A stretch of DNA of 64,000 nucleotides from Thermodesulfovibrionales bacterium (GTDB taxonomy: Bacteria > Nitrospirota > Thermodesulfovibrionia > Thermodesulfovibrionales > UBA9159), in contig DASRZP010000053.1 in assembly GCA_035686305.1 (NCBI GenBank), positions 3,583-67,582 on the forward strand. The letters are read 5' to 3'. The notes beneath the pieces are model-generated. The model saw only the letters and a list, made by a program, of their open reading frames with translations. It was not told the DNA's origin and searched no databases. Positions 249 through 63,266 of this stretch are shown here, piece by piece. How positions within the stretch are numbered: position 1 is the first letter of the stretch; the number at the start of each line of letters is the position of its first letter. The position numbers were made by a program, and so were the translations under genes.

Positions 249-317
249 GTTTATCGCAAATGATGGCAAGGAGTTCTCTGTAATCGGAAGGATTGTTCTT
301 CGGGGAGGGAGTTTTGT

Positions 318-4429: not shown

Positions 4430-4446
4430 GAGAGAGTCCGGCGGGG

Positions 4447-19926: not shown

Positions 19927-19939
19927 TGGTGGTCCGGGG

Positions 19940-33819: not shown

Positions 33820-34287
33820 ATGCACGGGAAGGGACACGGGCGCAAGGGGGCGCAGTCGACTGCGGGACTCCGTGGCCGTGTCTGGATCGACGGAGGAGAA
33901 GGAACGTTCCTGGGATACGGCAGGATCGTGCTCCTCGAGAAGATTCAGGAGATCGGCTCCATTACAAAGGCCGCCAAGGCCATGGAAATCTCCTACCGCC
34001 ATGCCTGGAAGCTCGTGGATTCAATGAACAGGCAGGCGGGCCATCCTCTTGTGGAATCTTCTGCGGGTGGAAAAAATGGCGGCGGAGCCCGTCTGACGGA
34101 AGAGGGCGAGAAGGCTATCAGCCTTTTCTGGAAACTCTATGATGATTTTCAGCAGTTCCTGAGGCAGGAAGAAGGGAAGCTCGGTGTTTCTTTTAAGAAA
34201 CAAGGGGATCACTCAAAGGATACATCAGGCTCTCTGAAGTTCTTTGCCTCGAGCACGGCAACAAGTAGAGAAAGGAGGAGACGATGA
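33820..34287 (+). CDS. ModE-like winged-helix regulator lacking Mop/TOBE domains
   Basis: LGYGRIVLLEKIQEIGSITKAAKAMEISYRHAWKLVDSMN...GGKNGGGARLTEEG is the ModE N-terminal (LysR-type HTH) domain. It is only 155 aa, with no di-Mop domain. The stop overlaps the next ATG (ATGA). Confidence 0.8.
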   Translation: MHGKGHGRKGAQSTAGLRGRVWIDGGEGTFLGYGRIVLLEKIQEIGSITKAAKAMEISYRHAWKLVDSMNRQAGHPLVESSAGGKNGGGARLTEEGEKAISLFWKLYDDFQQFLRQEEGKLGVSFKKQGDHSKDTSGSLKFFASSTATSRERRRR

Positions 34288-35066
34288 AGAAAGGGAAGAC
34301 GAGACTGGTTATTGCATCGACAACAAGCACGCAAAACTCGGGGCTCTTTGATATTCTCATCCCCGCCTATGAGAAAGCGACGGAGTACAACGTAGCGACT
34401 GAGATTGTTGCGGTGGGAACAGGCAAGGCCATACGGATAGCCAAAAAGGGAGAGGCTGACATGCTCTTCGTGCATGATCCCTTTAGGGAGGAAAAGTTCG
34501 TAGCCGAAGGATACGGTGTCAATAGGAGGGCTGTCATGCATAATGACTTCGTGGTCGTCGGTCCGGTCAAGGACCCTGCAGGGATTAGGGGCATAGCATC
34601 GGCAGTGGAAGCCTTTGAATTGATTGCAGAGCACGGTGCAGCCTTTATTTCCCGGGGAGATGATTCGGGAACGAATATCCGGGAACTCGATATCTGGGAC
34701 GACGCAGGCATCAATCCGAAGGGCAAGGCATGGTATATGGAGATGGGCAGTAAAATGGGCGAGACCCTGCTCGCGGCCAGCGAGAGGGAGACCTATACCA
34801 TTGCTGACATGGGAACCTTCCTGAACTATGAAGACAGGCTCAAGCTGAAGGTCCTCGTAAAAGGCGACCCGATTCTCAGAAACCAGTACAGTGTTATTGC
34901 TGTGAACCCTGCAAGATTTCCTGACGTGAGGTACCGTGAGGCTATGGATTTTATCGCCTTTGTCACGTCTTTCGAGGGGCAGAAGCTCATCGCAACGTAC
35001 CTAAGGCATGGTGCTAACCTTTTCTATCCTGACGCAATCCCGTTGGCTGCTCAGAAAAGGAAATGA
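34284..35066 (+). CDS. TupA-like oxyanion-binding protein without signal peptide (cytoplasmic paralogue)
   Basis: The TupA signature ASTTSTQNSGLFD starts at residue 11. VAVGTGKAIRIAKKGEADMLFVHDP and HNDFVVVGPVKDPAG follow. AAAGGAGGAG lies 3 nt before the ATG, and an in-frame TAG lies 5 codons upstream, so it is not a fusion. Confidence 0.8.
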   Translation: MKKGKTRLVIASTTSTQNSGLFDILIPAYEKATEYNVATEIVAVGTGKAIRIAKKGEADMLFVHDPFREEKFVAEGYGVNRRAVMHNDFVVVGPVKDPAGIRGIASAVEAFELIAEHGAAFISRGDDSGTNIRELDIWDDAGINPKGKAWYMEMGSKMGETLLAASERETYTIADMGTFLNYEDRLKLKVLVKGDPILRNQYSVIAVNPARFPDVRYREAMDFIAFVTSFEGQKLIATYLRHGANLFYPDAIPLAAQKRK

Positions 35067-35143
35067 CGGGGAAAAGACAAATGCGGCGAGTCTCTTTTCT
35101 TCCAAACCCTCTGGAAGGAAGGAAACTCTAAGGAGGCATAACG

Positions 35144-35959
35144 ATGAAAAGAATTGTTGCTGTAATTCTTGCCATTATCGTTTCCGGCTTTGCAACCGCT
35201 GCCTTTGCCGAGACGGCGATTATCTGTTCCTCGACGACAAGCACAGAGAACTCCGGTTTGTTCGGCTACATTTTGCCGCTCTTTGAGAAAAAAACGGGCA
35301 TCAAGGTAAAGGTCGTCGCGAGGGGGACGGGCGCTGCCATCGAAATGGGCAAAAGGGGAGATGCCGACGTCGTCTTTGTCCATGCGAAAGAGCAGGAGCT
35401 GAAGGCCGTTGAGGATGGCTTCTTTGTGAACCGCCATGATGTCATGTACAATGATTTCGTCATCATAGGCCCCTCCGATGATCCGGCAAAGCTCAAGGGA
35501 ACAAAATCGGCCTCCGACGCCTTCAAGAAGATTGCCGATGGCGGCCTTCTCTTCGTCTCCCGTGGCGACAACTCCGGCACCCATACAAAGGAACTCTCGA
35601 TCTGGAAGAAAGTCGGCATAGATCCGAAGGGCAAAAAATGGTATCTCGAGGTAGGCCAGGGCATGGAAAAGACCCAGAGGATCGCCAACGAAAAACGGGC
35701 ATACACCCTCACCGATAGGGGCACATGGCTTGCAACAAAGGATAAGGACAAGCTTGAGATGGTCATCGTCCTTGAGGGTGATCCTCTCTTGTTTAATCAG
35801 TATGGTGTCATGGCGGTAAATCCTGAAAGGCATAAGCACGTTAAATACAAAGAGGCGACGGAATTTATTAACTGGCTGATATCGAAGGAAGGGCAGGAGG
35901 CGATTGCTTCATTCAAAGACGCCAACGGCAATGCCCTTTTCATCCCCAATGCAAAGTAA
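35144..35959 (+). CDS. tupA: Tungstate ABC transporter substrate-binding protein
   Basis: Signal peptide MKRIVAVILAIIVSGFATAAFA. Then SSTTSTENSGLFG, ARGTGAAIEMGKRGDADVVFVHA, and YNDFVIIGPSDDPA. Confidence 0.85.
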   Translation: MKRIVAVILAIIVSGFATAAFAETAIICSSTTSTENSGLFGYILPLFEKKTGIKVKVVARGTGAAIEMGKRGDADVVFVHAKEQELKAVEDGFFVNRHDVMYNDFVIIGPSDDPAKLKGTKSASDAFKKIADGGLLFVSRGDNSGTHTKELSIWKKVGIDPKGKKWYLEVGQGMEKTQRIANEKRAYTLTDRGTWLATKDKDKLEMVIVLEGDPLLFNQYGVMAVNPERHKHVKYKEATEFINWLISKEGQEAIASFKDANGNALFIPNAK

Positions 35960-35987
35960 CGACGGGGCCCTGCCCGGAGTTGAGCGG

Positions 35988-36272
35988 ATGAGCGTTCTCA
36001 TTCATGCCCTGCGGGACTATGCCGTTCAGAACGCTCGGGCTTACTATGAGGAGCATCTCTTCCAGACCTATTGCGCCCCCTGCCTTGCCACATGGGACGC
36101 CTTTGCATGGTTCGAGGTCGTCCAGGACTGGGAACTTGTCGATTTCCTCACCTCAGGCACGGTTAAGGCGGATCGGTTGCTGAGGAGTCTTCAGGCATGT
36201 CTTCAATGGTATGGACAGACAGAGATTGATGACATTCTTGCGCGCATGGACACGGCAAGGATAAGAAACTGA
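35988..36272 (+). CDS. Hypothetical cytoplasmic protein inserted between tupA and tupB
   Basis: A 94-aa ORF (MSVLIHALRDYAVQNARAYYEEH...) with GGAG 8 nt upstream and no recognised motif. An alternative start at 35949 would overlap tupA. Confidence 0.4.
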   Translation: MSVLIHALRDYAVQNARAYYEEHLFQTYCAPCLATWDAFAWFEVVQDWELVDFLTSGTVKADRLLRSLQACLQWYGQTEIDDILARMDTARIRN

Positions 36273-36359
36273 GGGAGACGAAATCAGGGTGGGGCGCGTT
36301 CAGAAACGGGGCGCACAACCCTTCTGTCCCGCATCTTTGATCCGGGCTCTCTTGAGACA

Positions 36360-37067
36360 ATGAGTTCGATACTGGAGGGATTGAGCAAGGCCTTTTCCCT
36401 TATTCTGCATCTCAATGCAGAACTGCTGGGCATTATCGTGCTCTCCATTGAGGTATCAGGGACTGCCCTTCTTATTGCTACGCTCTTGGGGCTTCCCCTC
36501 GGTGCTCTCCTCGGATTCAGGAAGTTTCCCTTAAAAGGTCTTTTCATCAGTGTCATGAATACCCTTATGGGACTGCCCCCTGTGGTTGTCGGTCTCTTTG
36601 TTTATCTTTTGCTTTCAAGAAGCGGACCCTTTGGTTTCCTGTCGCTCCTCTATACCCCCGAGGCCATGGTTCTTGCCCAGAGTATCCTTGCCTTTCCTAT
36701 CGTCACGTCACTAAGCCATTCAGCAATCACCAGTGTTGATCCGATCATTCGACAGGCTTCCATGACCCTCGGGGCTACCCCTTTTCAGATCTCATTCAGG
36801 ATCATAAGAGAGGCCCGCTACGGAATCATGTCCGGGATCATTGCGGCCTTTGGAAGGGTCATGGCTGAAGTGGGTGCAATACTCATTGTCGGTGGAAACA
36901 TCGCGGGTTTTACAAGGGTGATGACGACAACCATAGCCCTCGAGACCGACAAGGGCAACTTTGAACTTGCCCTTGCCCTCGGCGTCATACTCCTGGCAAT
37001 TTCGCTGTCGATAAATTCCGTTCTCCACGTCATCCAAAAGAAAGGCTCGATCGGAGGAAACAGATGA
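36360..37067 (+). CDS. tupB: Tungstate ABC transporter permease
   Basis: Five or six TM helices. EAA-like loop IIRQASMTLGATPFQISFRIIREARYG. Stop/start overlap (ATGA) with tupC. Confidence 0.85.
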   Translation: MSSILEGLSKAFSLILHLNAELLGIIVLSIEVSGTALLIATLLGLPLGALLGFRKFPLKGLFISVMNTLMGLPPVVVGLFVYLLLSRSGPFGFLSLLYTPEAMVLAQSILAFPIVTSLSHSAITSVDPIIRQASMTLGATPFQISFRIIREARYGIMSGIIAAFGRVMAEVGAILIVGGNIAGFTRVMTTTIALETDKGNFELALALGVILLAISLSINSVLHVIQKKGSIGGNR

Positions 37068-37756
37068 GCCTGAGACTCGATGCCTCGAATATCGGGAAGG
37101 TATACAACGGCAACGAGGTATTGAGAGACTGCTCTTTTTCATTCCATGAAAAGGGTATCTACGTCTTGACCGGAATGAACGGCTGCGGCAAATCTACTTT
37201 CCTCAGGATCTGCGCCCTTATCGAGACCCCCGACAGCGGTGAAGTAAGGTATCTTGCCGACGGGAAGAGGGTGGAGAACGATCTGGCAGTCAGACGGAGG
37301 ATAACCCTGGTGCTTCCTAGGGTGGGAGTTTTCAACAGCACGGTCTTAAAGAATGTAGCATATGGATTGACAATCCGTGGAATAAGGCAGGACGAGGCGG
37401 AAAGGAAAGTCAGCAGCGCCCTTGAGTTTGTGGGTTTGAGTAACAAGAGAGAACAGAACGCCTTGACTCTTTCGAGCGGAGAGACGCAGCGCCTCGGCAT
37501 TGCGAGGGCATTGGTTATAGAGCCTGAGATCCTCTTCCTCGACGAGCCGACGGCCTCTGTCGACCTCAAGAACACCGAGATCATAGAAAACATCATCCTG
37601 GAGATGAGAAAGAGTAGCCGTGCGATCGTCATCATCGCGACCCATGACAGAGGGCAGGCACAGAGACTTGCGGACCGCCTCCTGGTAATGCGTGACGGAA
37701 AGATCACAGTCAGTCCTTCCTCGGGTGCCTGCCTTTCCGAAAAACGACAGTTTTAA
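37064..37756 (+). CDS. tupC: Tungstate ABC transporter ATP-binding protein
   Basis: Walker A GMNGCGKST, signature LSSGETQRLGIARAL, and Walker B ILFLDEPTASVD. Confidence 0.88.
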   Translation: MSLRLDASNIGKVYNGNEVLRDCSFSFHEKGIYVLTGMNGCGKSTFLRICALIETPDSGEVRYLADGKRVENDLAVRRRITLVLPRVGVFNSTVLKNVAYGLTIRGIRQDEAERKVSSALEFVGLSNKREQNALTLSSGETQRLGIARALVIEPEILFLDEPTASVDLKNTEIIENIILEMRKSSRAIVIIATHDRGQAQRLADRLLVMRDGKITVSPSSGACLSEKRQF

Positions 37757-37868: not shown

Positions 37869-39020
37869 ATGGATGAACATGGACGCAAGGAGAAGGTGAT
37901 AACGATTACCTACGCTATCACTTCTTCTTCAGGAGAGATCGGGAAGATTGCGGAAGAAATAGCCCTGGAACAGACTGTCGAAGTTCCTGCGGAGGTCATT
38001 GGGGACGACAGGGTGCGAGAGGAGATTGTCGGCAAGGTCGTCTCGATTCACAGAACCGACAGTGAAACGGAAGAGCGCTGCATCGTTGAGATAGCCTATC
38101 CTGTTATCGTATCGAACTATGAGATCCCTCAGTTTCTCAACCTCCTGTACGGGAACATCTCGTTCAAGAGGGGAATCAGGATTGTCGACATGCACTTTCC
38201 GCCGGAATTCATCCGCACCTTCAGGGGCCCGAAGGTAGGGCTAGAGGGCATGAGAAGACTCATCGGCGTTTTCGACAGACCTCTCGTCTCTACTGCATTG
38301 AAACCGATGGGCAGATCGCCGGAAGAGCTGGCAGAAATGTGCTACCAATTTGCGCTCGGAGGAATCGATATCATCAAAGACGACCACAGTCTCGTGGATT
38401 TTCCCTTTTGCAGGTTTGAGGAGAGGGTTACGGAATGCATGAAGGCCATTGAGAGGGCGGAGGCGAAGACAGGCAAGAGAGCCCTTTACTTTCCGAACAT
38501 TACTGGCCGCTTCGAAAGGATCATGAACAATGTGGAATACGCGATGGAGAAGAACGTTGGAGGTCTCCTCGTCTCTCCTTTTGTCATGGGGCTCGACTGC
38601 GTGAGACATATTGCAGAACGTGACGGGATCGACAAACCCGTCATGTCCCATCCCTCATTGACCGGAATTTTTTTTGCAGATAGCGAGACCGGCATTGCTC
38701 CCGGTCTCCTCCTCGGTAAACTCTTTAGGCTCATCGGCATAGACTGTTCCGTCTTTCCGAATTTTGGAGGACGGTTCTCCTTTGACCGGCCGACCTGCCT
38801 CTCGATTGCCGGTGCCTTGAGGGAGGAGTTTTATCATATGAGAAGCGCCTTCCCGACGCCGGCCGGAGGAATGCGCCTCGAAAACATTGCTGAAATCCTG
38901 CACTTTTATGGTAAGGATATTATCCTCCTCATCGGGGGGGCGCTGTATCTCAAATCCCGTGACCTTCAGGAGGGCGCACGATATTTTTGCGAAAGGGTTT
39001 CGGCTGCTTGCAGGCAGTAA
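37869..39020 (+). CDS. RuBisCO-like protein (form IV RLP)
   Basis: RuBisCO large-subunit core: STALKPMGRS (KPKxG box with Lys177 replaced by Met) and ALGGIDIIKDDHSL (K201 and D203 kept, E204 replaced by His). TPAGGM and LLIGGA glycine motifs. These by-eye substitutions are incompatible with carboxylation. Confidence 0.85.
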   Translation: MDEHGRKEKVITITYAITSSSGEIGKIAEEIALEQTVEVPAEVIGDDRVREEIVGKVVSIHRTDSETEERCIVEIAYPVIVSNYEIPQFLNLLYGNISFKRGIRIVDMHFPPEFIRTFRGPKVGLEGMRRLIGVFDRPLVSTALKPMGRSPEELAEMCYQFALGGIDIIKDDHSLVDFPFCRFEERVTECMKAIERAEAKTGKRALYFPNITGRFERIMNNVEYAMEKNVGGLLVSPFVMGLDCVRHIAERDGIDKPVMSHPSLTGIFFADSETGIAPGLLLGKLFRLIGIDCSVFPNFGGRFSFDRPTCLSIAGALREEFYHMRSAFPTPAGGMRLENIAEILHFYGKDIILLIGGALYLKSRDLQEGARYFCERVSAACRQ

Positions 39021-39082
39021 GGTATTCTCGGAGAACTCCAGACTCTTTCTCGTCATTCTGTTTCGAACAGGGAGGTTGAGCG

Positions 39083-39466
39083 ATGGGCGTTATTCACCGT
39101 TTTACCGGAGAAGAGAATAATTTCAATTGGGAGGGCGCGATCCCCCGAGGCTATATCAAGGCAAACACGAAGGGCGCTGACGGCAAGGTCCTCATCGGCA
39201 AAACCGATGGAGCCCGGCAGTTTATTATCAGGTATTTCCGCGTAGAGCCCGGCGGCTGGACTGCCCTCGAGAACCATCCCCATGACCATGGGATCTTTAT
39301 CCTCCATGGGAGGGCCCGTGTTTTGCTTGGTAATGAAGAGGTAGAGGTGGGGCCCCGTGATGCCGTCTACATCAACCCTGACGAAGTCCATCAGCTGCGG
39401 CCCGTCGGGGACGAAGCCCTTGGTTTCCTCTGCATCGTGCCGCCGAAGGACAATGAGATTGGATGA
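39083..39466 (+). CDS. Cupin-domain protein
   Basis: GGAGG lies 7 nt before the ATG. Cupin motifs GGWTALENHPHDHGIFILHG and GPRDAVYINPDEVHQL. Confidence 0.85.
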   Translation: MGVIHRFTGEENNFNWEGAIPRGYIKANTKGADGKVLIGKTDGARQFIIRYFRVEPGGWTALENHPHDHGIFILHGRARVLLGNEEVEVGPRDAVYINPDEVHQLRPVGDEALGFLCIVPPKDNEIG

Positions 39467-39517
39467 GAAGGCCCAGGAACCGGCATACGGAATGACATCG
39501 CTTAAGGCACTCGGTGC

Positions 39518-39805
39518 TTGGTGATGAAAGGTCTTCTCAAAAACCTTGTCTTGAAGAACAGGGAACTCATATGGAAAGAAGCCGAGAAGATGCAAGGTTT
39601 TATGGCGCTCCTTATGAAGCCCAGGAACACGGGGGCAGGGTGGACGGAGGATGAGAAGAAGTCATTAAAGGCTCACCTGAAGCACCTTTCCGCTTTCCTT
39701 CCCGCACTCGTCATTTTTCTCTTGCCCGGCGGTTTCCTTCTCCTGCCCCTTCTTGCCATTGCCCTTGACAGGAGAAAAAAGAAGCGGCACGAGCTTGAAA
39801 AGTGA
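39518..39805 (+). CDS. Hypothetical small membrane protein
   Basis: An amphipathic N-half, one TM helix (LPALVIFLLPGGFLLLPLLAIAL), and a basic tail RRKKKRHELEK. Confidence 0.5.
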   Translation: MVMKGLLKNLVLKNRELIWKEAEKMQGFMALLMKPRNTGAGWTEDEKKSLKAHLKHLSAFLPALVIFLLPGGFLLLPLLAIALDRRKKKRHELEK

Positions 39806-39807
39806 TC

Positions 39808-40671
39808 TCAATGATCGGCGAGACTAAAGAGGGAGGTTCTCTTTCCATGCTCTCGTCCCCTGGGCTTCAGCGCCGTTATATATGCGGAAAAGACCATCGT
39901 CTCCACTCCCTCGCCAAAGTTCCAGCTTCTGATGATCTCGTCGCTGTTATCTTTATCCTGAACGACAATGTTGGTGAAGCCTGCCGCTGAAAGAATCCTT
40001 TTCAGTTCCTCAACGGGAACCGCTCCGGTAATTCAACCACTATAGGCATCTTCATTCTTCGTGATCTCTTCCGAAAATTCGCCTTTCTTCAGCACATCGG
40101 AAATCGCAAGCCTGCCTCCCGGTCTCAAGACTCGGTATGCTTCATTGAAAACGGCCTGTTTGTCAGGAGAGAGATTAACGACACAGTTGGAAATAATGAC
40201 ATCGATTGAAGACCCATGGAGGGGCAGACGCTCTATCTCCCCATGTCTGAACTCCACATTCTTCATCCCCAGCTTTTCCGCGTTTGCAGTCGCCTTTGCG
40301 ACCATCTCAGGTGTCATATCAACACCAATGACATGACCGTTTGGTCCCACCTTCATGGATGAGAGGAAGGCGTCAAAACCGGCGCCGCTCCCAAGGTCGA
40401 GAACCGTTTCCCCAGCCGTAAGCTCGGCAATGGCATGGGGATTTCCGCAGCCGAGGCCGAGGTTAGCCTCTCCGAGGCCCACCTTTAATTCCTCTTCGGA
40501 GTACCCAAGCATCTTTCCCGTCTCCAGCAGGCTTATCGTATTGATCTCAGGAGCACAGCAACGTGCAGAAGAAAGGCACGATGGTCCGCCTGCTGCCACG
40601 GCAGAGTAGCTCTTCAATACCAGCTGTTTAATCTTTGCTCTTTTTTGATCCATCTTTCCGATCTTCATCAT
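39808..40671 (-). CDS. arsM: ArsM-like SAM-dependent (arsenite) methyltransferase with in-frame UGA (probable selenocysteine at codon 213)
   Basis: N-terminal CC pair (ARCCAPE), GLGCGNP, VLDLGSGAGFD, and VIISNCVVNLSPDK. ...EDAYSG-TGA(40035-40033)-ITGAVPVEELKRILSAAGFTNIVVQ... continues in frame to TGA 39810-39808. The TGA aligns with the conserved ...GC[IV]AGA Cys of ArsM. Confidence 0.75.
40003..40022 (-). promoter_or_regulatory. Candidate bacterial SECIS hairpin 3' of the arsM UGA
   Basis: On the mRNA, 10 nt separate the UGA from a 7-bp stem CGGUUCC/GGAACUG (one G.U pair) closing a CGUUGA loop that contains GU. Confidence 0.45.
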
Positions 40672-40930
40672 ACCACAGAAGAGGGATGGTGTTCATACTC
40701 TTTGCATTCTCCTCTTGACCTTCCAGGCGCTCAAAAACATTTTGTTCGGGAAGGCAGGTATGGTGAGACGCCTCGTATCGCGATACCTTTGAAGGTTGCC
40801 GTCCACCGATGTCAGCTCAATGGGGGAAATCACTTTCGGTGGAGTCCCCCTCAGGGCACCTCTTTGCTGAAGGCTCACCGCATGTACGGGGCTTCGATCA
40901 CCCCTGCCTTCCCATTGTGCACCGTTGGGG

Positions 40931-40959
40931 TTGACAAACTGTGATATAATCATATACCA
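40931..40959 (+). promoter_or_regulatory. Promoter region of arsR (overlapping candidates)
   Basis: Two overlapping candidates: TTGACA (40931-40936) with TATACC 16 nt downstream, and an extended -10 TGATATAAT (40942-50). The ATG is at 40970. Confidence 0.4.
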
Positions 40960-40969
40960 TTACGTTTAT

Positions 40970-41383
40970 ATGAAAGACATAGCGAAACTCTGCGGCGTCT
41001 TTTCCGATGAGACGAGAATGCGCATTCTCATGCTCCTCACGCGGAAGGAGATGTGCGTTTGCCAGATCATGGGGGTCCTCGGCATATCGCAACCTCTTGT
41101 GTCCCGAAATCTCTTTCTCCTCAGGAGCGCCGGGCTGCTCTCGGAGCGGAGAGAGGGAAAGCTCGTCTTCTATTCATTGATAAAGGACCTTCCCGCTGTT
41201 GCAGGAGGAATCATTTCCCTGCTGAAGAAACATCTGAAAGATGATCCAGTCTTTACCTCCGATCTCCAGTCCCTTGCCGACTGTTCCGCCTTTCAGAAGA
41301 GGTCCGGGAAATGTGATATGAAGACCTTCCTCGCCTTTATTGAAGAGCAAAGGAAAAAGAGGCAACGCAGTGTCAGGAAATAA
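40970..41383 (+). CDS. arsR: ArsR/SmtB family metalloregulator
   Basis: LFSDETRMRILMLLTRKEMCVCQIMGVLGISQPLVSRNLFLLRSAGLL, with the CVC metalloid-binding motif in the HTH. Divergent from arsM. Confidence 0.88.
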   Translation: MKDIAKLCGVFSDETRMRILMLLTRKEMCVCQIMGVLGISQPLVSRNLFLLRSAGLLSERREGKLVFYSLIKDLPAVAGGIISLLKKHLKDDPVFTSDLQSLADCSAFQKRSGKCDMKTFLAFIEEQRKKRQRSVRK

Positions 41384-41436: not shown

Positions 41437-42831
41437 ATGGATAGACCTGTCATCTCGGCACTCATTGTCGTTGTATTCTGCTGCTGTGCCATACCACGGG
41501 ACGGTCAGGGTACCGCGGGTGTCATGGGACGGTTTCTCGGTATCTCCGAAGCCCTGGCAGAAGCAAAGCCTGTCAGCCTCAGAGAGGCTGTAAGGCTTGC
41601 CCTTGAGAATAACCATGAAATACGGGCATCACAAAATGCCCTCTCGTCGCAGGGTGAAGATGTGGGGGTGGCGCTCAGCAACCTCCTCCCGAAGATAAGC
41701 TTTGAGGAACGGTTCTTGAGGACAACGAATCCCTCCTTCGCCTTTATGGCAAAGCTCAATCAGGCGCGGTTCACGCAGGAGGACTTCGCGATCAACTCGC
41801 TCAACAATCCCTCCGCCACAAACGACTTCCAGACATCCTTTTCCTTCGAGCAGCCGGTCTTCGTGAGGAAGGCGGGCGTGGGGCTCGATATGGCGAAGAC
41901 GGAATATGCCGCGGGCAGGGAGGAATACATACGGAGACAGCAGGAGCTTGCCCTGAAGGTTGCGAAGACCTACCTCTCGGTGATGACTGCAAAGCAATTC
42001 GTGAGGGTCTCTGAAAAGGCGCTGGAAGACAGTCGCGAGCACTTGAGGGTGGCAGGGGTGCGATACAGCGATGGTGTCGGGCTCTATTCTGATTCTCTGC
42101 GGGCATCGACATCGGTGACCGAAGCAGAGCAGAGACTCGTGAGCGCTCAAAAGAATCTGAATGTTGCGAAGAGGGCCCTGGGACTTCTCCTCGGCAGGGA
42201 CGAGGCCATCGAGACGACGGAGGGAGCACCCGATATCGCGTTGATGCCTGTTGAATACTATATGAATTCCTCACTCGCAAGAAGGGACATCAAGTCCCTG
42301 GAATTACGCTATGAGAACGCAAAGAATAATGTGAAGCTCGCTGAGGCCTCCTATTTCCCGAATATCGGAATCGGCGGGAACTATCAACTCAATGACCATA
42401 ATACGCCCTTCGGCAGCGAGGGGACGAGCTGGACGCTCCTCGCTTTTCTGCGCTGGGACATTTTTGACGGCACGAAGAGGGAGCGTGAAAGGACAAAGGC
42501 TAAATTCCAGGTTGCCGAGACCGAAGAGCATCTCAAGGGGCTGAAGAAGGCTGTTTCCTTCAAGGTCTATGATGCCTATCTCGGCGTTGAGGAGGCGAAG
42601 AAGAACGCTGAGCTTTCGAGTTCGGCCCTTGCTACAGCCGAGGAAGGCACAAGGCTCGTGATGGCGCGGTACGAACGTTCCCTCTCGCCGGTCGTCGACC
42701 TCCTCGATGCGCAGGCGACTCTCGATCAGGCAAGGGCGAATGCAGTGGCCCGGTCAAACGACTATCTGCTCTCTGTTATCAATCTCTCTTACGAGGCAGG
42801 AACCATATTGCAGGACCTGAAGACAGAATAA
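41437..42831 (+). CDS. TolC-family outer membrane efflux protein
   Basis: Two OEP repeats (LSLREAVRLALENNHEI... / ...LSPVVDLLDAQATLDQAR). It is the first gene of a TolC-MFP-RND set. Confidence 0.88.
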   Translation: MDRPVISALIVVVFCCCAIPRDGQGTAGVMGRFLGISEALAEAKPVSLREAVRLALENNHEIRASQNALSSQGEDVGVALSNLLPKISFEERFLRTTNPSFAFMAKLNQARFTQEDFAINSLNNPSATNDFQTSFSFEQPVFVRKAGVGLDMAKTEYAAGREEYIRRQQELALKVAKTYLSVMTAKQFVRVSEKALEDSREHLRVAGVRYSDGVGLYSDSLRASTSVTEAEQRLVSAQKNLNVAKRALGLLLGRDEAIETTEGAPDIALMPVEYYMNSSLARRDIKSLELRYENAKNNVKLAEASYFPNIGIGGNYQLNDHNTPFGSEGTSWTLLAFLRWDIFDGTKRERERTKAKFQVAETEEHLKGLKKAVSFKVYDAYLGVEEAKKNAELSSSALATAEEGTRLVMARYERSLSPVVDLLDAQATLDQARANAVARSNDYLLSVINLSYEAGTILQDLKTE

Positions 42832-42849
42832 GGAATCCGGAGGAGTGTT

Positions 42850-44067
42850 ATGAAAAAAAAAGAGAGGACAGGCTGGAAGCGTTCGCGGAGAGGGGATGGC
42901 TGGAGAGGGAGAGGGAGACTCTTCCTCGTCCTCTGCTCTTCCACAATTGCCGTCTCTTCTCTTTTCGTTGCGGGCTGCAAGGAAAAGGTGAAGCCCGGCA
43001 CTGCCGAGATAAGGAGTCAGGTCGTGAAGGGTGTCGTTGTTCAGGAAGTAAGACCGTCACGGGTCGATGAGTACTATGAGACTTCTGCCACGGTCAGGGC
43101 AAAGACGACGACCATGATTGCGAGCAGGATCATGGGCGTCGTGACGTCGGTGAAGGTGAGGGAAGGTGACAGGGTAAGAGCGGGACAGGTGCTGATATCG
43201 ATTGACGACAGCGATTCCGCAGAAAAAGTGGCTGCAGCTGAGGCCGGGGAGCGGGAGGCGCTTAAGGCCCTGGAGGCGGCGAAGCAGAACAAAGCTCTCG
43301 CAGACATAACATACCGGAGGTATAAAGGCCTCGTCGATGAAAAGGTCATTACCCAGCAGGAGCTCGATCAGATCGAAACGCAGAAGAGGGTCGCAGACAT
43401 CGAATGTGAACGGGTTCAGGAGATGGTGAACAGGGCAAAGGCGGGTCTCTCCGAGGCTCGGATATACCATGGCTTCACAAGAGTAACCTCTCCTTTCTCC
43501 GGAATAGTGACGGAAAAGAAGATCGAACAGGGGGGGATGGCGGTGCCGGGGGCTCCCCTCATGACGGTCGAAGATCCGTCCTCCTTTAGACTCGACGTGA
43601 ACGTAGCGGAGAGCCTCCTAGGTAAGATGAGGACCGGCATGCCCGTCGATATCGTCCTTGAGTCGATCGGAAAGAATCTCAAGGGCAGGATATCCGAGAT
43701 CGTTCCGGCAGTGGATCCCCTTTCAAGGACCTTTCTTGTGAAAGTTGAAGTTCCCGTCGAAGGGTTAAGGAGCGGTCTCTATGCAAAGGTGAGGATCCCC
43801 GTCGGGACGAAAGAGGCCCTTGTGGTTCCCGGGAATGCGATCGTCGAGAAGGGCCAGCTCACCGGAGTCTACACGGTCGATGAGAAAGGGATAATAGCCT
43901 ACAGGCTTATCCGGACAGGAAAACGGTATGAAGAGGGCTTCGAGATAGTATCGGGGATAAACCCCGGAGACAAGATCATTAGCGAAGGTTCTGATAGGGC
44001 AATGGACGGGGGAATACTTGATCGAAGCGACAAAAAACAGGAACCATCTCAGACTCGACAGAGGTAG
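42850..44067 (+). CDS. RND efflux periplasmic adaptor (MFP) lipoprotein
   Basis: Lipobox FVAGC. Lipoyl/barrel-sandwich motifs VKVREGDRVRAGQVLISID and TSPFSGIVTEK. Confidence 0.88.
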   Translation: MKKKERTGWKRSRRGDGWRGRGRLFLVLCSSTIAVSSLFVAGCKEKVKPGTAEIRSQVVKGVVVQEVRPSRVDEYYETSATVRAKTTTMIASRIMGVVTSVKVREGDRVRAGQVLISIDDSDSAEKVAAAEAGEREALKALEAAKQNKALADITYRRYKGLVDEKVITQQELDQIETQKRVADIECERVQEMVNRAKAGLSEARIYHGFTRVTSPFSGIVTEKKIEQGGMAVPGAPLMTVEDPSSFRLDVNVAESLLGKMRTGMPVDIVLESIGKNLKGRISEIVPAVDPLSRTFLVKVEVPVEGLRSGLYAKVRIPVGTKEALVVPGNAIVEKGQLTGVYTVDEKGIIAYRLIRTGKRYEEGFEIVSGINPGDKIISEGSDRAMDGGILDRSDKKQEPSQTRQR

Positions 44068-44073
44068 AATCGG

Positions 44074-47000
44074 ATGAAGGGTATCGGCATCGCGGGCAGG
44101 ATCGCAAAGTCATTCATACGGTCGAAACTTACTCCCCTCATCGTCATTGCATCTCTGCTCCTCGGGGTCTTTGCGATCATCGTCACGCCGAGGGAAGAAG
44201 AGCCGCAGATAGTCGTTCCGATGATCGATGTCATCGTAACCTATCCGGGCGCGTCGGCGCGAGAGGTCGAGGCGCGTGTGACGAGGCCCATGGAGAAGCT
44301 CCTCTGGGAAATAAAGGGTGTCGAATACATTTACTCTATCGTCAAGCCCGGGATGAACCTTACAATCGTGAGGTTCTATGTGGGGGAAGACATGGAGAAG
44401 AGTCTCGTCAATCTGTACAACAAGCTCATGTCGAACTACGATAAGATACCGCCTGGTGTGTCTCAGCCAATGGTAAAACCGAAATCGATCGATGATGTGC
44501 CTATCCTTACCCTCACGCTGTGGAGTGAAAACAAGCGGTATTCAGGATATGAGTTGAGGCGCGTTGCATGGGAGCTGGGCGACGAGATCAAGAAAGAGAA
44601 GGATGTCTCGGAGCTTACAGTCAAGGGAGGACAGAGGAGACAGGTCAGGATCGCCCTCGATCCTTCCAGGCTCAGGGCATACGATACTACAGCCTTTCAG
44701 ATCATGGGCGCTCTGCAGAAGGCGAATGTTTCCCTCCCTTCCGGCGCTTTTCCTTCAGGGAACAGGGAGTACCTTGTTGATACAGGAAGATTTATCAGGG
44801 ATGCCGGTGAGGTCGGCAGCCTCGTTGTCGGGGTAGTGAACGGCAGGCCCGTCTATCTGAAGGACGTGGCTGAGATCAAGGACGGACCAGAGGAGCCGGC
44901 CGATTACGTCTTCATGGGCCTGGGACCATCGGCCGAGAAGAAGGGGATTACAGCCGGTAAATCCGGGTTGTACGAGGCGGTCACCATAGCCATCGCAAAG
45001 AAGAAGGGTGCAAATGCAAGCATCGTCGCCCACGAAGCCCTCAAGAAGGTTGAGGCCTTAAGAGGCAACCTCCTGCCCTCTGCTATCAACGTGACGGTGA
45101 CGAGGAATTACGGAGATACGGCAAAGGAAAAGTCAGATGAGTTGCTCGAGCATATGCTCATCGCCACCATCTCGGTGATCTTTCTCATCGCCCTTGCCCT
45201 TGGCTGGAGGGAATCTCTTGTTGTGGCGGTGGCCGTGCCTGTCACTCTTGCCCTGACGCTCCTTGTGAACTACCTCTACGGATACACCCTGAACAGGGTG
45301 ACGCTCTTTGCCCTCATATTCTCAATCGGTATCCTCGTCGATGACGCCATCGTCGTTGTCGAAAACATACACAGACATTTCAGGCTCCGCAGGGTAGAGC
45401 CCCTTACTGCCGTCCTTGCTGTCGATGAAGTCGGCAACCCGACGATACTCGCCACCTTTGCCGTTATCGCGGCCCTTCTCCCCATGGCCTTCGTCTCCGG
45501 TCTCATGGGCCCCTATATGCGGCCCATACCCGTCGGCGCCTCAGCAGCCATGCTCTTTTCCCTCCTCGTCGCCTTCATTGTCAGCCCCTGGCTCAGTTAC
45601 AAGGTCCTGAAGAACGTGAAACAGAAGGAGGGGGAAGAAGAGGGCGGGAGATTCCTTGGGCTCTATGGAAGAATGCTCGGTCCTCTTATCAACGACAGAA
45701 ACAGGCGAATGGCTGCCCTCGCCGCTGTGGCCTCGCTCCTTGGATTGGCTCTTCTCCTCGTTCCGCTGGAGGCAGTCACGGTGAAGATGCTTCCCTTCGA
45801 TAACAAGAGCGAACTTCAGGTGATTGTTGATATGCCGGAGGGCGTGACCCTTGAGGAGACGACAGCCCTGACAGGGGAACTGGGAAAATATCTGAAGACC
45901 GTTCCCGAGGTCACCGATTATCAGGTCTATGCCGGGACATCGGCGCCCTTCAACTTCAACGGCCTTGTGAGGCATTATTTCCTCAGGTCAGGGAGCAATG
46001 TGGCCGATATCCAGGTGAACTTCGTCGGCAAGGATGAGAGGACTGCCCAGAGCCACGATCTCGCAAAAAGGCTGCGGCCTGAACTTAAGAGGATTGGTGA
46101 CAGATACGGCGCCAGGATGAAGGTTGCCGAGATTCCGCCGGGACCGCCTGTCCTGAGCACCCTCGTTGCCGAGGTCTACGGACCTGAGACGAGAGGGCAG
46201 ATTGAGATCGCGAAAGAGATCAAGGAGATCTTTGCCAAGACACCGGGCGTTGTCGATGTAGACTGGTATGTAGAAGACAACCAGAAGAAAGTTACCTTTG
46301 AGATCGACAAGGAGAAGGCCGCGTTCAATGGTATCAGTACGGAGACCGCATTGCAGAGCCTGAGAATCGCACTGAACGGGATGGGGTCGGGTCTCGTCCA
46401 TTTCGAGAGAGAGAAGGAGCCCGTTGAACTTTTTCTGAGAAGTCCCCTGGACGAACGGGCGAGTATCGAGTCACTGAAACAGATCACTGTGCCTTCGGCC
46501 TCAGGAAATCTTGTGGCCCTCTCGGATCTCGTTACGATGAGGGAAGGGCTGGAGGATAAGACGATATACCACAAGAACCTGAAGAACGTCACCTACGTAA
46601 CAGGAGATGTGGCGGGTACGGAGGAAAGCCCTGTCTACGCGATCTTCAAGATGAAGGATAAGGTGAGGGACCTGAGGCTTCCCGAGGGCTATGAACTGAA
46701 GCAGTATTCATCGGTCCAGCCGTGGATCGAGGACAGGTATGCGATGAAGTGGGACGGCGAATGGCACATCACCTATGAGGTATTCAGGGACCTCGGCGTC
46801 GCCTTCGGCGCCGTGCTCATTCTTATTTACATACTCGTTGTGGCCTGGTTCAGGAGCTTCCTTACGCCGCTCATCATCATGGCCCCCATACCTCTTACCC
46901 TGGTCGGCATTCTCCCCGGACACTGGATGTTCGGAGCCTTCTTCACGGCCACGTCCATGATAGGCTTCATAGCGCTGGCAGGCATCATCGTGAGGAACTC

Positions 47001-47328
47001 CATACTCCTCGTCGATTTTGTCCAGATGGAATGGAGGGAACGGGGCAGTCTGAAAGACGCCCTGATAAAGGCGGGCGCTGTCCGGTTCAGACCGATCGTG
47101 CTCACGGCCGCTGCGGTAGTTGTGGGGTCTTTTGTCATGATCTTCGATCCCATATTCCAGGGGCTTGCGATAGCGATGATGTTCGGGGCGGTGGCGGCAA
47201 CGGGGCTCACGCTTATCGTTGTTCCCCTCCTTTATTATGAGGTGTTTAAGAACAGGGGATGTCCTCTCAAAGAGGGGGAAAAGGTCAAGGGGAAAGAAGG
47301 AGGAGAGAAGGAGTTTTCAGAAATATAG
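44074..47328 (+). CDS. RND efflux transporter, AcrB/AcrD/AcrF family
   Basis: 1084 aa with 12-TM RND topology. [23 protein letters not shown] and [14 protein letters not shown] motifs. Confidence 0.9.
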
Positions 47329-47370: not shown

Positions 47371-47595
47371 ATGTATTTGGCTAAGACTGACAATTGGTAT
47401 CTCGAAAGAATCATCTGGCTCGTGGCTGGTATTTTCACGCTCTCAAGCGGTATATTGGCTTGGGTACACAGTGCATACTGGCTGATTCTGACATGCCTTG
47501 TCGGCGTGAACCTGATTGTTTTAGGACTTACAGGCTTTTGCCTGATGGCGAACATACTGTATTCACTCGGTGCAAAGCCAAGATTGCAGAAGTAA
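47371..47595 (+). CDS. DUF2892 (YgaP-like) small membrane protein
   Basis: ERIIWLVAG...LVGVNLIVLGLTGFCLMANILYSLG matches the DUF2892 two-helix pattern. Confidence 0.7.
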   Translation: MYLAKTDNWYLERIIWLVAGIFTLSSGILAWVHSAYWLILTCLVGVNLIVLGLTGFCLMANILYSLGAKPRLQK

Positions 47596-47636
47596 GGGAC
47601 AAAAAAATTCAAGGAAATCTATCAAGGAGGCGAAGA

Positions 47637-47795
47637 ATGGAGACCTACGAATACCTCTGTCTTGCGTGCAAAAGGCTCTATGTCCTCCGCGCGTCAGCGG
47701 AAAAGTGTGATGAAGGCAAAGAGTGCCCTCATTGCAAGAGCAGGGACGTCGTTCAGCTCGGCGTTTCAAGTCTCTTCGGTTTATCGGGCGGTTGA
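47637..47795 (+). CDS. FmdB-family (CxxC_CxxC_SSSS) zinc-ribbon protein
   Basis: AAGGAGG lies 6 nt before the ATG. METYEYLCLACKRLY...CPHCKSRDVVQL. Confidence 0.75.
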   Translation: METYEYLCLACKRLYVLRASAEKCDEGKECPHCKSRDVVQLGVSSLFGLSGG

Positions 47796-48104
47796 AACCC
47801 CTATGGTTGCTGAGACCGGTTCGGTCTCCCACTCATTGAGCATTGACCAGTCGCACACGGGCTTCTGCTGTTTTACCGATAGAGTTCAGCTGTTGTCTCT
47901 GAGAGGAGGCGCTCCTGAATTGTTTACGGAGCCAATTGATTCGTGAGTGCCTTCATAATTCTTTCATGATTGCATGATATCGTATTTCTCATCAGATTGC
48001 AGGGGGAGGTGAATCGAGAATGTGGAGAAACAGTTCCTGAAGGGTTATCCGGTCAAGAAGATCCGGGACATCGTCGAACAGGAATATTAAACGATAGGAG
48101 GTTC

Positions 48105-48497
48105 ATGATGCGGAAATTCGTTGTCGTTACTATGGTCGTTTTTTTGTTTGCAGGCATTGCCTATGGCAAGGACTACGAGGTGAAGAAGAAGGCAGGGGGG
48201 TATGACGTGGAGGTCACGATCGATAAGAACCCGCCTGTGGTGGGTGACAATAATGTGAAGATCGAGATCAAGGACGCCTCAGGAAAGTACGTAACGGACG
48301 CCAAGGTGGTTGTGGATTATAGCATGCCTGCAATGCCCGGCATGCCGGCCATGAATTATAAGGCAGACGCTGAAGTGAAGGGGAATGAGTATAGGGCGAA
48401 GATGAATCTTTCGATGTCCGGCTCCTGGAACGTTGCGATAAAGGTCAATAAAGGCGGGAAGACGTCGACCATGAAATTCACCGTAGACGCGAAATGA
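48105..48497 (+). CDS. FixH/YtkA-like periplasmic protein with Met-rich motif
   Basis: AGGAGG lies before the ATG, followed by a signal peptide. VGDNNVKIEIKDASGKYVTDAKVVVDYSMPAMPGMPAM, then an Ig-like tail. Located immediately upstream of cusCBA. Confidence 0.7.
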   Translation: MMRKFVVVTMVVFLFAGIAYGKDYEVKKKAGGYDVEVTIDKNPPVVGDNNVKIEIKDASGKYVTDAKVVVDYSMPAMPGMPAMNYKADAEVKGNEYRAKMNLSMSGSWNVAIKVNKGGKTSTMKFTVDAK

Positions 48498-48509
48498 AGG
48501 CCATGCTGC

Positions 48510-55324: not shown

Positions 55325-55735
55325 ATGAAGAGACGGAATTTCCTGCAGGCGTTACTAGCCTTGCTCGGTTCGATTTCCTTTGCCTCTTTTGTTTATCCCC
55401 TGGTACGGTTCCTCGCTCCTCCGAGCGCAGAAGCAAAAGCCAGAAAAGTGACTCTCCAGAAAAACGAGGTCCCTGTCGGAGGCGCTAAGAACATCGTAGT
55501 CAACAATTCCCCTGCCATTGTCATTAACAGAGCGGGTAAGGGGTTTATCGCCTTCTCGAAGGTCTGCACCCATCTCGGGTGTCTCGTCGAATATGATAAA
55601 GACAACAACAGGTTGGTCTGCCCCTGTCATGCGGGAATATACGACCTTGAAGGTAATGTCCTCTCCGGTCCTCCGCCGAAACCTCTGCCGAAGCTTCCTC
55701 TGAGAGTGGAAGGCGACAATATTGTAATAGGGTAG
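55325..55735 (+). CDS. Rieske [2Fe-2S] protein with Tat-type signal
   Basis: MKRRNFLQALLAL, plus Rieske boxes CTHLGC and CPCHAG. Confidence 0.9.
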   Translation: MKRRNFLQALLALLGSISFASFVYPLVRFLAPPSAEAKARKVTLQKNEVPVGGAKNIVVNNSPAIVINRAGKGFIAFSKVCTHLGCLVEYDKDNNRLVCPCHAGIYDLEGNVLSGPPPKPLPKLPLRVEGDNIVIG

Positions 55736-55740
55736 GAGAT

Positions 55741-60419: not shown

Positions 60420-60431
60420 GGACGGTCCCTC

Positions 60432-61364: not shown

Positions 61365-61373
61365 ACACCTCTA

Positions 61374-61889: not shown

Positions 61890-62011
61890 GTTTACCCTGT
61901 ACTCCCCGTTAGGATTTTTTACTGCTGCCACACTCTCTTTTATTTTATATACTAATCTCTTCTTTCATGCCATTGCAAGCATTTATCCACCTTGCCCGTA
62001 AAAAAGAGAGG

Positions 62012-63265: not shown

Positions 63266-63266
63266 C

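Follow-up and report, generated by a model that had tools for sequence, protein, structure and literature searches.

Arsenite methyltransferase (ArsM) is listed among the selenoprotein families, with its selenocysteine (Sec) in a 'UxxG' motif (PMC13188914), and Sec-containing forms appear in selenoproteome surveys (Fomenko et al. 2007, Science 315:387; Zhang & Gladyshev 2008, GOS) and in reviews of 2022 and 2026, in agreement with the mention of Sec-ArsM in the initial annotation of the present locus. The pairing of Sec with Cys was already used in 2007 to identify the catalytic cysteine of the ArsM family. In the Cys-type enzyme CmArsM the arsenic-binding roles of Cys174 and Cys224 are documented, the equivalent of Cys224 is needed for both methylation steps, and in the published catalytic cycle the residue at the Cys224 position is the last ligand to hold DMAs(III) before release (PMC6138428). 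A biochemical characterisation of a native Sec-ArsM was not found in the literature searched. With respect to the lineage considered here, complete selA, selB, selC and selD have been reported in Thermodesulfovibrio genomes (PMC5389517), and Sec-containing MccSep occurs within Nitrospirota mainly in Thermodesulfovibrionia (PMC13510729).

The gene described here lies on a contig of a Thermodesulfovibrionales (Nitrospirota) MAG, in a window of 64 kb that comprises the whole stretch of DNA analysed. Positions 39808-40653 of the minus strand very probably constitute a single intact arsM gene in which an in-frame UGA at the arsenic-binding position is read as selenocysteine.

The arsM reading frame and its in-frame UGA

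The initial annotation described an ORF of 212 codons at 40033-40671(-) ending in TGA at 40035-40033, followed after read-through by 74 further codons in frame until TGA 39810-39808; translation reproduces both, together with all of the ArsM motifs it named, namely the CC pair (C38/C39), GLGCGNP (C75), VLDLGSGAG (residues 90-98), and ISNCVVNLSPDK (C163). The end of that ORF stands, but its start at ATG 40671 probably does not. Because homologues and the identical database protein P0001 begin at MDQK, the true start is probably Met7 (ATG 40653-40651), from which the gene has 281 codons, as opposed to 287 if the upstream in-frame ATG at 40671 is used. Residues of the product are numbered from ATG 40671. 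A promoter-like site upstream of the gene, if real, would also favour the Met7 start. The features of the gene are as follows.

39808-40653, minus strand: complete coding sequence of arsM, containing one recoded UGA, predicted from translation, the NF008823 match, homologue starts, and pN/pS
40033-40035, minus strand: in-frame UGA, predicted Sec codon, residue 213, equivalent to CmArsM Cys224 and human AS3MT Cys206 (aligned homologues, 4fr0)
39808-39810, minus strand: true stop codon TGA of arsM (translation)
40378-40404, minus strand: SAM-binding motif VLDLGSGAG, residues 90-98 (translation and Pfam)
40447-40449, minus strand: Cys75 of GLGCGNP, equivalent to CmArsM Cys72 (alignment to 4fr0)
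40183-40185, minus strand: Cys163, equivalent to CmArsM Cys174, metalloid-binding partner of residue 213 (alignment to 4fr0; PMC6138428)
40667-40695, minus strand: promoter-like site TGAACA-17-TATGAT with an upstream TG, 5' of arsM (consensus match only)

With Cys in place of the UGA, the read-through product scores 328.8 bits with the family model NF008823, whose curated cutoff is 263, and residues 10-271 correspond to profile positions 3-269 of 272. Pfam matches to Methyltransf_31 (E = 2e-39), Methyltransf_25, and Methyltransf_11 identify the class I SAM-binding domain. The 3' 225 nt, which the initial annotation took to restore the C-terminal domain, are indeed a conserved ArsM C-terminus, as indicated by this profile coverage and by the post-UGA pN/pS given below. 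Residues 271-287 form a non-conserved tail, and relatives stop at ...ALKP or a few residues beyond. At the other end of the product, C32, C38, and C39, candidate counterparts of the conserved N-terminal cysteine C44 of CmArsM, are conserved in P0042 and P0064; alignments to PDB chains begin only at residue 73.

A gap-free alignment to CmArsM (4fr0_A) places C75 opposite C72, C163 opposite C174, and the UGA (U213) opposite C224, the residue number that the initial annotation had given for this position. Among 160 related loci the codon aligned to the UGA is TGC or TGT in 145 and TGA in the remaining 15, and neither Trp nor Gly stands at this column in any homologue, consistent with the proposal that the UGA occupies the position of a conserved Cys. 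TGA is also found in nine of nine further clade-A loci (L161-L169), bringing the number of independently assembled TGA loci, which come from different samples, to 24. All TGA loci show equal amino-acid identity on the two sides of the stop. The Cys or Sec assignments are taken from codon-level classification only; in a UPGMA tree 24 Cys forms were mislabelled 'U', the HSPs having run through the natural stop, and those calls were disregarded. That tree only suggests that at least two independent switches from Cys to Sec may have occurred in ArsM. When the full read-through sequence was used as query in the genome scan, uninterrupted Cys forms ranked first and only five TGA forms were returned, and close Sec forms were recovered from the metagenome collection with an N-terminal fragment as query followed by exact look-ups.

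Truncation by automatic annotation had been predicted for this gene, and it is seen both here and in relatives: P0001 is annotated 'arsenite methyltransferase' with a length of 206 aa, and in relatives gene callers place an orphan ORF of 52-60 aa directly 3' of the stop. Of 117 truncated homologues drawn from a database of 5.8 billion proteins (∼71-100% identity; at least 116 clusters at 90% identity), 116 end exactly one residue before the UGA position, and there are no Cys forms among homologues at 71% identity or above. Over 16 genes of clade A, the codons preceding the UGA have a pN/pS of 0.179 and those following it one of 0.204 (pS ∼0.7), indicating that purifying selection downstream of the UGA is as strong as that upstream.

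The hairpin downstream of the UGA and the gene neighbourhood

The 7-bp hairpin that the initial annotation placed at 40003-40022 is present and begins 10 nt 3' of the UGA.

40003-40022, minus strand: SECIS-like hairpin (bSECIS criteria, synonymous constraint, and pairing in clade A); 5' arm 40022-40016, CGGUUCC; loop 40015-40010, CGUUGA; 3' arm 40009-40003, GGAACUG

Published bSECIS criteria include a loop of 3-9 nt, G-U at loop positions 2-3, a stem of at least 4 bp, and dG ≤ -7.5 kcal/mol (PMC13188914). With a 6-nt loop, G then U from loop position 2, 7 bp, a distance of 17 nt from the UGA, and -9.2 kcal/mol, the hairpin passes all four bSECIS criteria, as do 17 of 22 distinct TGA forms in comparison to 11 of 143 Cys forms. 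On a simpler hairpin score the threshold is reached by all 15 of 15 TGA forms and by 41 of 145 Cys forms, and since the TGA forms are phylogenetically clustered, Fisher and Mann-Whitney p-values for such comparisons overstate independence. Stability of the hairpin taken by itself is within chance (66-nt fold z = -1.70; 12 of 200 shuffles as stable), and its significance thus lies in the comparative evidence and not in the stability of the fold. Synonymous-site divergence reaches its minimum at codons 216-225, which encode the hairpin (0.25, compared to a gene mean of 0.79 with sd 0.13), and the hairpin windows occupy ranks 1-3 of 248 for lowest synonymous divergence over the whole gene. This constraint at the RNA level, together with the bSECIS result, upholds the suggested compatibility with a bacterial SECIS.

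Across 14 clade-A sequences 92% of the cells of the hairpin stem are paired; compensatory covariation is absent within clade A, where the stem is simply conserved. The three TGA clades have differing stem sequences at about equal distance from the UGA. The clade B stem contains one compensatory change, U-A to C-G, a weak signal that 35 of 500 shuffles also reach. Searches against Rfam SECIS families give no match at the gathering threshold over the whole window and none at E ≤ 10 over 39700-40200, all hits being of chance level. Bacterial SECIS coverage of Rfam is narrow, and the hairpin is outside every curated Rfam SECIS family, yet it fits the generic bSECIS model.

The region upstream of arsM contains a divergent regulatory gene and a palindrome.

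40925-41383, plus strand: ArsR-family regulator with a CVC motif (EMCVCQIM), divergent from arsM (Pfam HTH_5, E = 1.5e-13; translation)
40756-40788, no strand assigned: imperfect palindrome between arsM and arsR (15-nt arms, 80% complementary, 3 nt apart)

The ArsR reading frame probably starts at ATG 40970, and its CVC presumably corresponds to the motif with which ArsR proteins such as R773 ArsR bind As(III). The palindrome may be considered a candidate ArsR operator. In two relatives (L165 and L167) ArsR and an Acr3-type SBF carrier adjoin the same split arsM, and a 180-aa ORF downstream of arsM has no homology to the 179-aa ORF beside arsM in a further relative (L166). The ArsR and Acr3 context lends indirect support to As(III) methylation as the predicted activity of the arsM product. 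A mechanical screen of the 64-kb window for TGA-split ORF pairs yielded no second selenoprotein candidate; two higher-scoring pairs, at 4921 and 51092, were rejected as an antisense frame inside clpB and an HlyD/AcrB gene junction, respectively.

Alternative readings of the UGA codon

Insertion of Cys at the UGA, either always or when selenium is scarce, by a SECIS/SelB-type route with a selC* tRNA-Cys(UCA), is improbable, but of the alternatives to Sec it survives best. Carriers of this type, which resemble tRNA-Sec, are described for Thermodesulfovibrio, other Nitrospirae, and Deltaproteobacteria: selC* tRNA-Cys with a GCA or UCA anticodon occurs in Thermodesulfovibrio and in Nitrospirae-like contigs, and opal suppression with Cys was shown in E. 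coli (Mukai et al. 2016, PMC5389517), so that a tRNA of this kind could sometimes insert Cys. Cys at this position moreover yields a functional enzyme in the 145 of 160 homologues that encode it. Against this reading, the genomes with selC* also carried complete Sec machinery, and UCA-anticodon forms with a dedicated CysRS* are described in Desulfobacterales and not in Nitrospirota (PMC5389517). ARAGORN finds no tRNA or tRNA-Sec in the 64-kb window, and the window thus contains no pointer to selC*. A UGA codon with a SECIS would also be a needlessly costly way to encode Cys compared to TGC or TGT, yet in more than 116 sequence clusters the UGA appears to be fixed.

It is highly unlikely that translation really ends at the TGA, in a pseudogene or a naturally shortened arsM whose 74 downstream codons are decaying. 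The public annotation as a 206-aa protein (P0001) agrees with such a reading, as does the lack of Sec machinery in the window, where none of selA, selB, selC, and selD is present. The downstream codons, however, evolve in the same manner as the upstream part, with a pN/pS of 0.20 and near-saturated synonymous sites, and the truncated product would be without the equivalent of Cys224 that both methylation steps need (PMC6138428). The selection on the post-UGA codons, the equal identity on either side of the stop in every TGA locus, and the retention of the identical stop in 116 clusters at ∼71-100% identity effectively refute decay of the gene.

The shared stop of 116 of 117 truncated homologues excludes a recent pseudogene and likewise a TGC or TGT misread as TGA in sequencing or assembly. 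A single base change would be enough for an error of this kind, and its probability is nonetheless negligible, considering that TGA is found in 24 independently assembled loci, is implied in 116 clusters, and co-occurs with a downstream hairpin that is mostly missing from Cys forms. Equally negligible are a genome-wide reassignment of UGA (for example to Trp or Gly, residues that homologues never have at this column), given that 28 of 65 ORFs in the window end in TGA, including those of complete-domain ClpB, ProB, and FabF, and the synthesis of two polypeptides, the second from an internal GTG, for which the 52-60 aa ORF called after the stop in relatives could be cited, but which would drop residues 213 and 214-219 and with them the essential ligand.

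Proposed mechanism, implications, and relation to known systems

On the favoured reading, selenocysteine at the UGA, this codon stands where CmArsM has Cys224, the fourth of the conserved catalytic cysteines, and the hairpin 10 nt 3' of it would act as a bacterial SECIS that recruits SelB-GTP-Sec-tRNA(Sec) to the ribosome. Sec would then be inserted, presumably in a SelB-dependent manner, and translation would run on for 74 more codons. In the resulting protein Sec213 and Cys163 would form the metalloid-binding pair that keeps As(III) or MAs(III) beside SAM, and residue 213 would be the final ligand of DMAs(III) ahead of release, as in the published catalytic cycle. Should recoding fail, the product would be a fragment of ∼206 aa that has no ligand at residue 213 and is expected to be inactive, and for this reason arsenic methylation in the organism would depend on selenium.

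If this mechanism is correct, two metalloid cycles would be linked, in that the arsenic methylation capacity of these Nitrospirota would depend on selenium availability. This arsM and at least 116 related clusters are stored as truncated 'arsenite methyltransferases' of ∼206 aa. Shortened in annotation, and in several relatives accompanied by an orphan ORF, these genes can be misjudged when the arsenic methylation potential of anoxic sediments and groundwater is assessed gene by gene, and Sec forms would be counted too low or scored wrongly in standard arsM surveys.

A wider claim, that Sec-ArsM is fixed across a large Thermodesulfovibrionia clade (116 or more clusters at 90% identity) and has at least two further origins in Desulfobacterales-like and other lineages, is tentative and rather doubtful. 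If it held, selenium supply would gate arsenic methylation by these widespread anaerobes, and a selC* tRNA-Cys that inserts Cys when selenium is scarce might act as a buffer. With selenium in the ligand from which the product is finally released (the Cys224 position), an As-Se bond could also give the enzymes kinetics or a product spectrum unlike those of Cys-ArsM. A limited literature search, which constitutes weak evidence, found no published statement on a Nitrospirota Sec-ArsM clade. What is new here is a mis-annotated Sec-ArsM; the family and the Sec position were already published, and nothing is conceptually new.

Among the described systems, the Cys-type ArsM and AS3MT enzymes of known structure (CmArsM 4fr0, 4fs8, and 4kw7; Chlamydomonas ArsM 5evj; 8xt7) have the same SAM-binding fold and aligned cysteines, with moderate similarity to the PDB ArsM chains (phmmer E = 1e-27 to 5e-30 over ∼160 residues), and the catalytic cycle is presumed to be the same (PMC6138428). 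The arsM product differs from them in having Sec in place of Cys224 and in its bacterial short form of ∼270 residues; eukaryotic ArsM and AS3MT proteins have ∼320-400 residues and an extra C-terminal domain. The hairpin lies within the coding region directly 3' of the UGA, as in the bSECISearch/E. coli fdhF paradigm. ArsM-fusion selenoproteins were reportedly described by Haft and Tolstoy in 2025. Three such families (NF041537, ArsM/AhpD; NF041536, ArsM/DUF2284; NF047649, MTase/UXPK-star) have a homologous methyltransferase domain with a UxxG Sec, but they carry a fused domain and two or three Sec residues, whereas the present product has one Sec and no fused second domain. Membership in these families was rejected, with scores of 170.8 versus 510, 159.7 versus 575, and 157.6 versus 460 bits, respectively, all of them from the methyltransferase portion. 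The closest described relative is thus the known Sec-ArsM (NF008823/PRK11873, representative WP_011987699.1), with which the present gene shares the family model and the Sec position; U-I-T-G matches the UxxG motif, there is a single Sec, and Cys homologues predominate. Unlike known Sec-ArsM, the copy described here was assembled in a MAG of Thermodesulfovibrionales and is part of a large clade, of at least 116 clusters, in which the Sec form is apparently fixed.

The arsM reading frame and the residue at its internal UGA

The minus-strand ORF 40033-40671 comprises 212 residues and ends at TGA 40035-40033, past which the frame remains open for 74 more codons to TGA 39810-39808. It carries CC at residues 38-39, GLGCGNP, VLDLGSGAG, and ISNCVVNLSPDK; translation and folding recover the ORF, read-through frame, motifs, and hairpin as the initial annotation described them. 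The true start is probably Met7 at 40653, because P0001, a database protein 100% identical to the window's truncated ArsM, and essentially all homologues begin MD/ME.... Translated with Cys for the UGA, the read-through protein reaches 328.8 bits with the NCBIfam model NF008823 'arsenite methyltransferase' (curated cutoff 263), in a match that spans profile positions 3-269 of 272. This nearly end-to-end match indicates that the segment after the UGA is a genuine ArsM C-terminus, as had been proposed for the read-through. The same protein scores far below the cutoffs of the NCBIfam exception models for ArsM-fusion selenoproteins, which rules out membership in those families.

Alignment by phmmer to CmArsM, a Cys-type ArsM of known structure (4fr0, 4fs8, 4kw7), is gap-free over query 162-236 and chain 173-247 and pairs U213 with Cys224, the number given in the initial annotation, and C163 with Cys174; in the block before it, C75 pairs with Cys72. 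Cys174 and Cys224 are the metalloid-binding pair in the crystal structures, the first methylation requires all four conserved cysteines, MAs(III) is bound tightly by Cys174-Cys224, and DMAs(III) is held weakly by Cys224 alone until release (PMC6138428). Lacking the Cys224-equivalent ligand, the 206-aa truncated product should be inactive.

In 160 related loci, drawn from collections of genomes and metagenomes, the codon aligned to the UGA is TGC in 86, TGT in 59, and TGA in 15, with no other codon; Cys, expected at this column, is thus encoded in 145 of 160 and the rest are TGA. TGA also stands at this position in all nine further close relatives (L161-L169), which were obtained by exact look-up. 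The TGA forms group as follows.

Clade A: the window and 15 relatives, 72-87% identical to the window
Clade B: L087, L001-L004, and L006
Clade C: L123 and L145

The genome-derived loci of clade B (L001-L004, L006) bear Desulfobacteraceae, Desulfobacteria, Desulfobacterales or Deltaproteobacteria MAG labels, and L087 is an unlabelled metagenome contig. In a crude identity-based clustering clade C lies closest to Cys forms (0.63 identity versus 0.49-0.54 to clades A and B), which tentatively suggests at least two independent Cys/Sec switches; forms mislabelled in that clustering were left out of account.

The hairpin downstream of the UGA, and annotation of the gene

A 7-bp hairpin begins 10 nt 3' of the UGA.

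40022-40003, minus strand: stem CGGUUCC and GGAACUG, loop CGUUGA

Published criteria for bacterial SECIS (bSECIS) hairpins call for a 3-9-nt loop with a G within its first two positions, as a rule followed by G or U, a 4-16-bp upper stem, a UGA-to-loop distance of 16-37 nt, and a minimum free energy of -7.5 kcal/mol or lower (PMC13188914). The window hairpin conforms in all four respects (CGUUGA, 7 bp, 17 nt, -9.2 kcal/mol), in keeping with its earlier description as compatible with a bacterial SECIS. The bSECIS criteria are passed by 17 of 22 distinct TGA forms versus 11 of 143 Cys forms, and a simpler hairpin score reaches threshold in 15/15 TGA forms versus 41/145 Cys forms. Since the TGA forms cluster phylogenetically, the p-values of these comparisons overstate independence. 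Stability alone does not separate the hairpin from chance (z = -1.70), and it has no match among the Rfam SECIS models.

Synonymous divergence, counted only at codon pairs with the same amino acid in 8-codon segments (n = 248), averages 0.79 (sd 0.13) over arsM. It is 0.25-0.27 in segments starting at codons 216-218 (GTT CCC GTG GAG GAA CTG), which occupy ranks 1-3 among the 248; each of the 12 lowest segments falls at codons 211-222. This is a constraint on the RNA, independent of protein conservation, and it coincides exactly with the hairpin. By clade, the stems are GUUCC/GGAAC, UUUCACC/GGUGAAA, and UUCUUC/GAAGAA, at about equal distance from the UGA in all three. The clade A stem is 92% paired with one-sided changes only and zero compensatory pairs; that of clade B is 100% paired and has one compensatory pair, U-A to C-G, a score that 35 of 500 shuffles also reach. 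Classical covariation support is weak, and the case therefore rests on synonymous constraint and structural conservation between clades; overall, the comparative evidence for the hairpin as an RNA element is strong.

A search of 5.8 billion proteins gave, among its 120 best matches, 117 of 202-234 aa with ~71-100% identity to the query. All but one of these (116/117) terminate at ...A-[Y/F]-[S/T/G]-G, whose final G directly precedes the UGA. The other three are two more distant full-length Cys forms and P0034 (250 aa); an example of a full-length Cys form is a Desulfofarcimen acetoxidans protein of 263 aa with 61% identity. Automatic annotation truncates the window gene, as predicted: P0001, titled 'MAG TPA: arsenite methyltransferase [Thermodesulfovibrionales bacterium]', is stored in truncated form. 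In relatives, the gene-caller annotation holds an orphan ORF of 52-60 aa starting ~19 nt past the arsM UGA, within the SECIS hairpin region.

L162 and L163, 10643-10801: orphan ORF
L164, 10640-10801: orphan ORF
L167, 2140-2322: orphan ORF

These are mis-called ArsM C-termini, a systematic annotation artefact of their clade.

Gene neighbourhood and other features of the window

The following features surround arsM.

39053-39595, minus strand: 180-aa ORF directly downstream of arsM
40756-40788: imperfect palindrome in the arsM-arsR intergenic region
40925-41383, divergent from arsM: ArsR/SmtB-family regulator (HTH_5, E = 1.5e-13)
41437-47328, plus strand: RND-type efflux operon downstream of arsR (OEP, HlyD-type adaptor, AcrB-type pump)
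47394-54373, plus strand: second, consecutive RND-type efflux operon (same three components)
47394-47795: Zn-ribbon protein between the two RND operons
47970-48497: YtkA-like protein between the two RND operons

The regulator carries EMCVCQIM, which includes a CVC motif; in classical ArsR such a motif is where As(III) binds. The intergenic region also has a promoter-like site, which together with the palindrome is only suggestive. The adaptor of the second RND operon is CusB-like (HlyD_D23, E = 2.5e-81), and arsR, arsM, and the two operons together look like a metal(loid)-resistance island. The neighbourhood varies among relatives: in L165/L167 the split arsM adjoins a metallophosphoesterase together with ArsR, an SBF (Acr3-type) carrier, or both, and in L162/L163 an LMW phosphatase (ArsC-like) lies 2 kb upstream. 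The 180-aa ORF matches no Pfam family and shares no homology with the 179-aa ORF that adjoins arsM in L166. On the 903-kb contig of L161 (11994-20179), Sec-arsM adjoins toxin-antitoxin pairs and Cas5d, Cas7, Cas3, Cas4, Cas1, and Cas2, a set that looks like type I-C and is unrelated to the Sec-arsM finding.

Elsewhere the window holds the following.

37869-39020, plus strand: short RuBisCO large-subunit homologue, 383 aa (catalytic-domain match to profile positions 3-171 of 299)
59172-60419 and 62012-63283, minus strand: two NrfD-type membrane subunits
60432-61364, minus strand: TAT-signal 4Fe-4S protein
61374-61931, minus strand: multihaem cytochrome c7-like protein
63267-63971, minus strand: second 4Fe-4S protein

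Because its catalytic-domain match is only partial, the RuBisCO homologue may be RuBisCO-like (form IV); it adjoins an ABC transporter (34284-37756) that includes two binding proteins of the PBP_like_2 type. The interleaved cluster at 59172-63971 resembles a quinone-interacting respiratory module; close to it, 55325-56835 encodes a Rieske/cytochrome b pair. In a 251-aa nucleoside diphosphate kinase homologue (7097-7852, minus strand) the 135-position NDK profile is stretched over residues 13-173, implying an insertion, and a C-terminal extension of ~80 aa follows. An MFS transporter directly follows a protein in which the DUF190 (COG1993, PII-like) domain occurs twice in tandem (19210-21133, plus strand), and the 429-aa ORF 33-1322 (minus strand) has zero Pfam matches at E <= 1e-4.

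Probable decoding of the UGA, and known selenocysteine arsenite methyltransferases

The best explanation, in which we have high confidence, is that the SECIS hairpin would guide SelB to insert Sec at UGA213, yielding a full-length ArsM whose Sec213 and Cys163 would bind As(III). The 64-kb window contains no selA, selB, selD or tRNA-Sec, nor tRNA genes of any kind, and lineage-level support for Sec decoding comes from the literature only: complete selA/B/C/D are reported from Thermodesulfovibrio genomes (PMC5389517), and Sec-containing MccSep within Nitrospirota occurs mainly in Thermodesulfovibrionia (PMC13510729). A mechanical screen found no second recoding candidate in the window; its top entry, ORF 4414-4923 (plus strand, antisense to clpB), with high codon-usage scores on both sides of TGA 4921, is judged to be an artefact of the antisense frame, since the minus-strand gene for the 812-aa ClpB fully accounts for the region.

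The main alternative, insertion of a residue other than Sec by a Cys-carrying selC* tRNA, appears quite improbable; tRNA-Sec-like selC* tRNA-Cys (GCA or UCA anticodon) is described from the lineage and can suppress opal codons with Cys (Mukai et al., PMC5389517). Selection bears on the remaining readings. Across 16 clade-A genes pN/pS is 0.179 before the UGA (codons 15-212) and 0.204 after it (codons 214-269), with pS of 0.76 and 0.69, respectively, placing synonymous sites near saturation, and amino-acid identity to the window is equal before and after the UGA in every TGA locus. Since constraint and identity match on both sides across independent assemblies, neither a sequencing error behind the TGA nor a pseudogene or decaying remnant can explain the gene. 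Global reassignment of UGA is excluded because TGA terminates 28 of 65 window ORFs, including the complete-domain ClpB, ProB, and FabF, and is a normal stop elsewhere in the source genome; a split protein of two polypeptides is likewise contradicted by direct tests.

The Sec-arsM feature is real and well supported, the initial interpretation being upheld by the Cys/TGA column, post-UGA selection, and the constrained hairpin. A limited literature search found no biochemical study of native Sec-ArsM, which is weak evidence, and Sec forms are absent from the discussion in a major ArsM phylogeny paper. The gene will little surprise selenoprotein specialists; it is of some practical use to annotation and to arsenic-cycling surveys, and some value lies in the Sec form being apparently fixed across a large Thermodesulfovibrionia clade. 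Selenocysteine forms of the enzyme are on record in selenoproteome surveys, as the initial annotation stated: arsenite methyltransferase counts as an established selenoprotein family of prokaryotes, entered as PRK11873 in the GOS survey (PMC2398784), and reviews of 2022 and 2026 list it (representative WP_011987699.1, motif 'UxxG') as 'experimentally verified', after Fomenko et al. 2007. The window arsM, whose U-I-T-G is consistent with that motif, is a new, mis-annotated example of this already published enzyme type.
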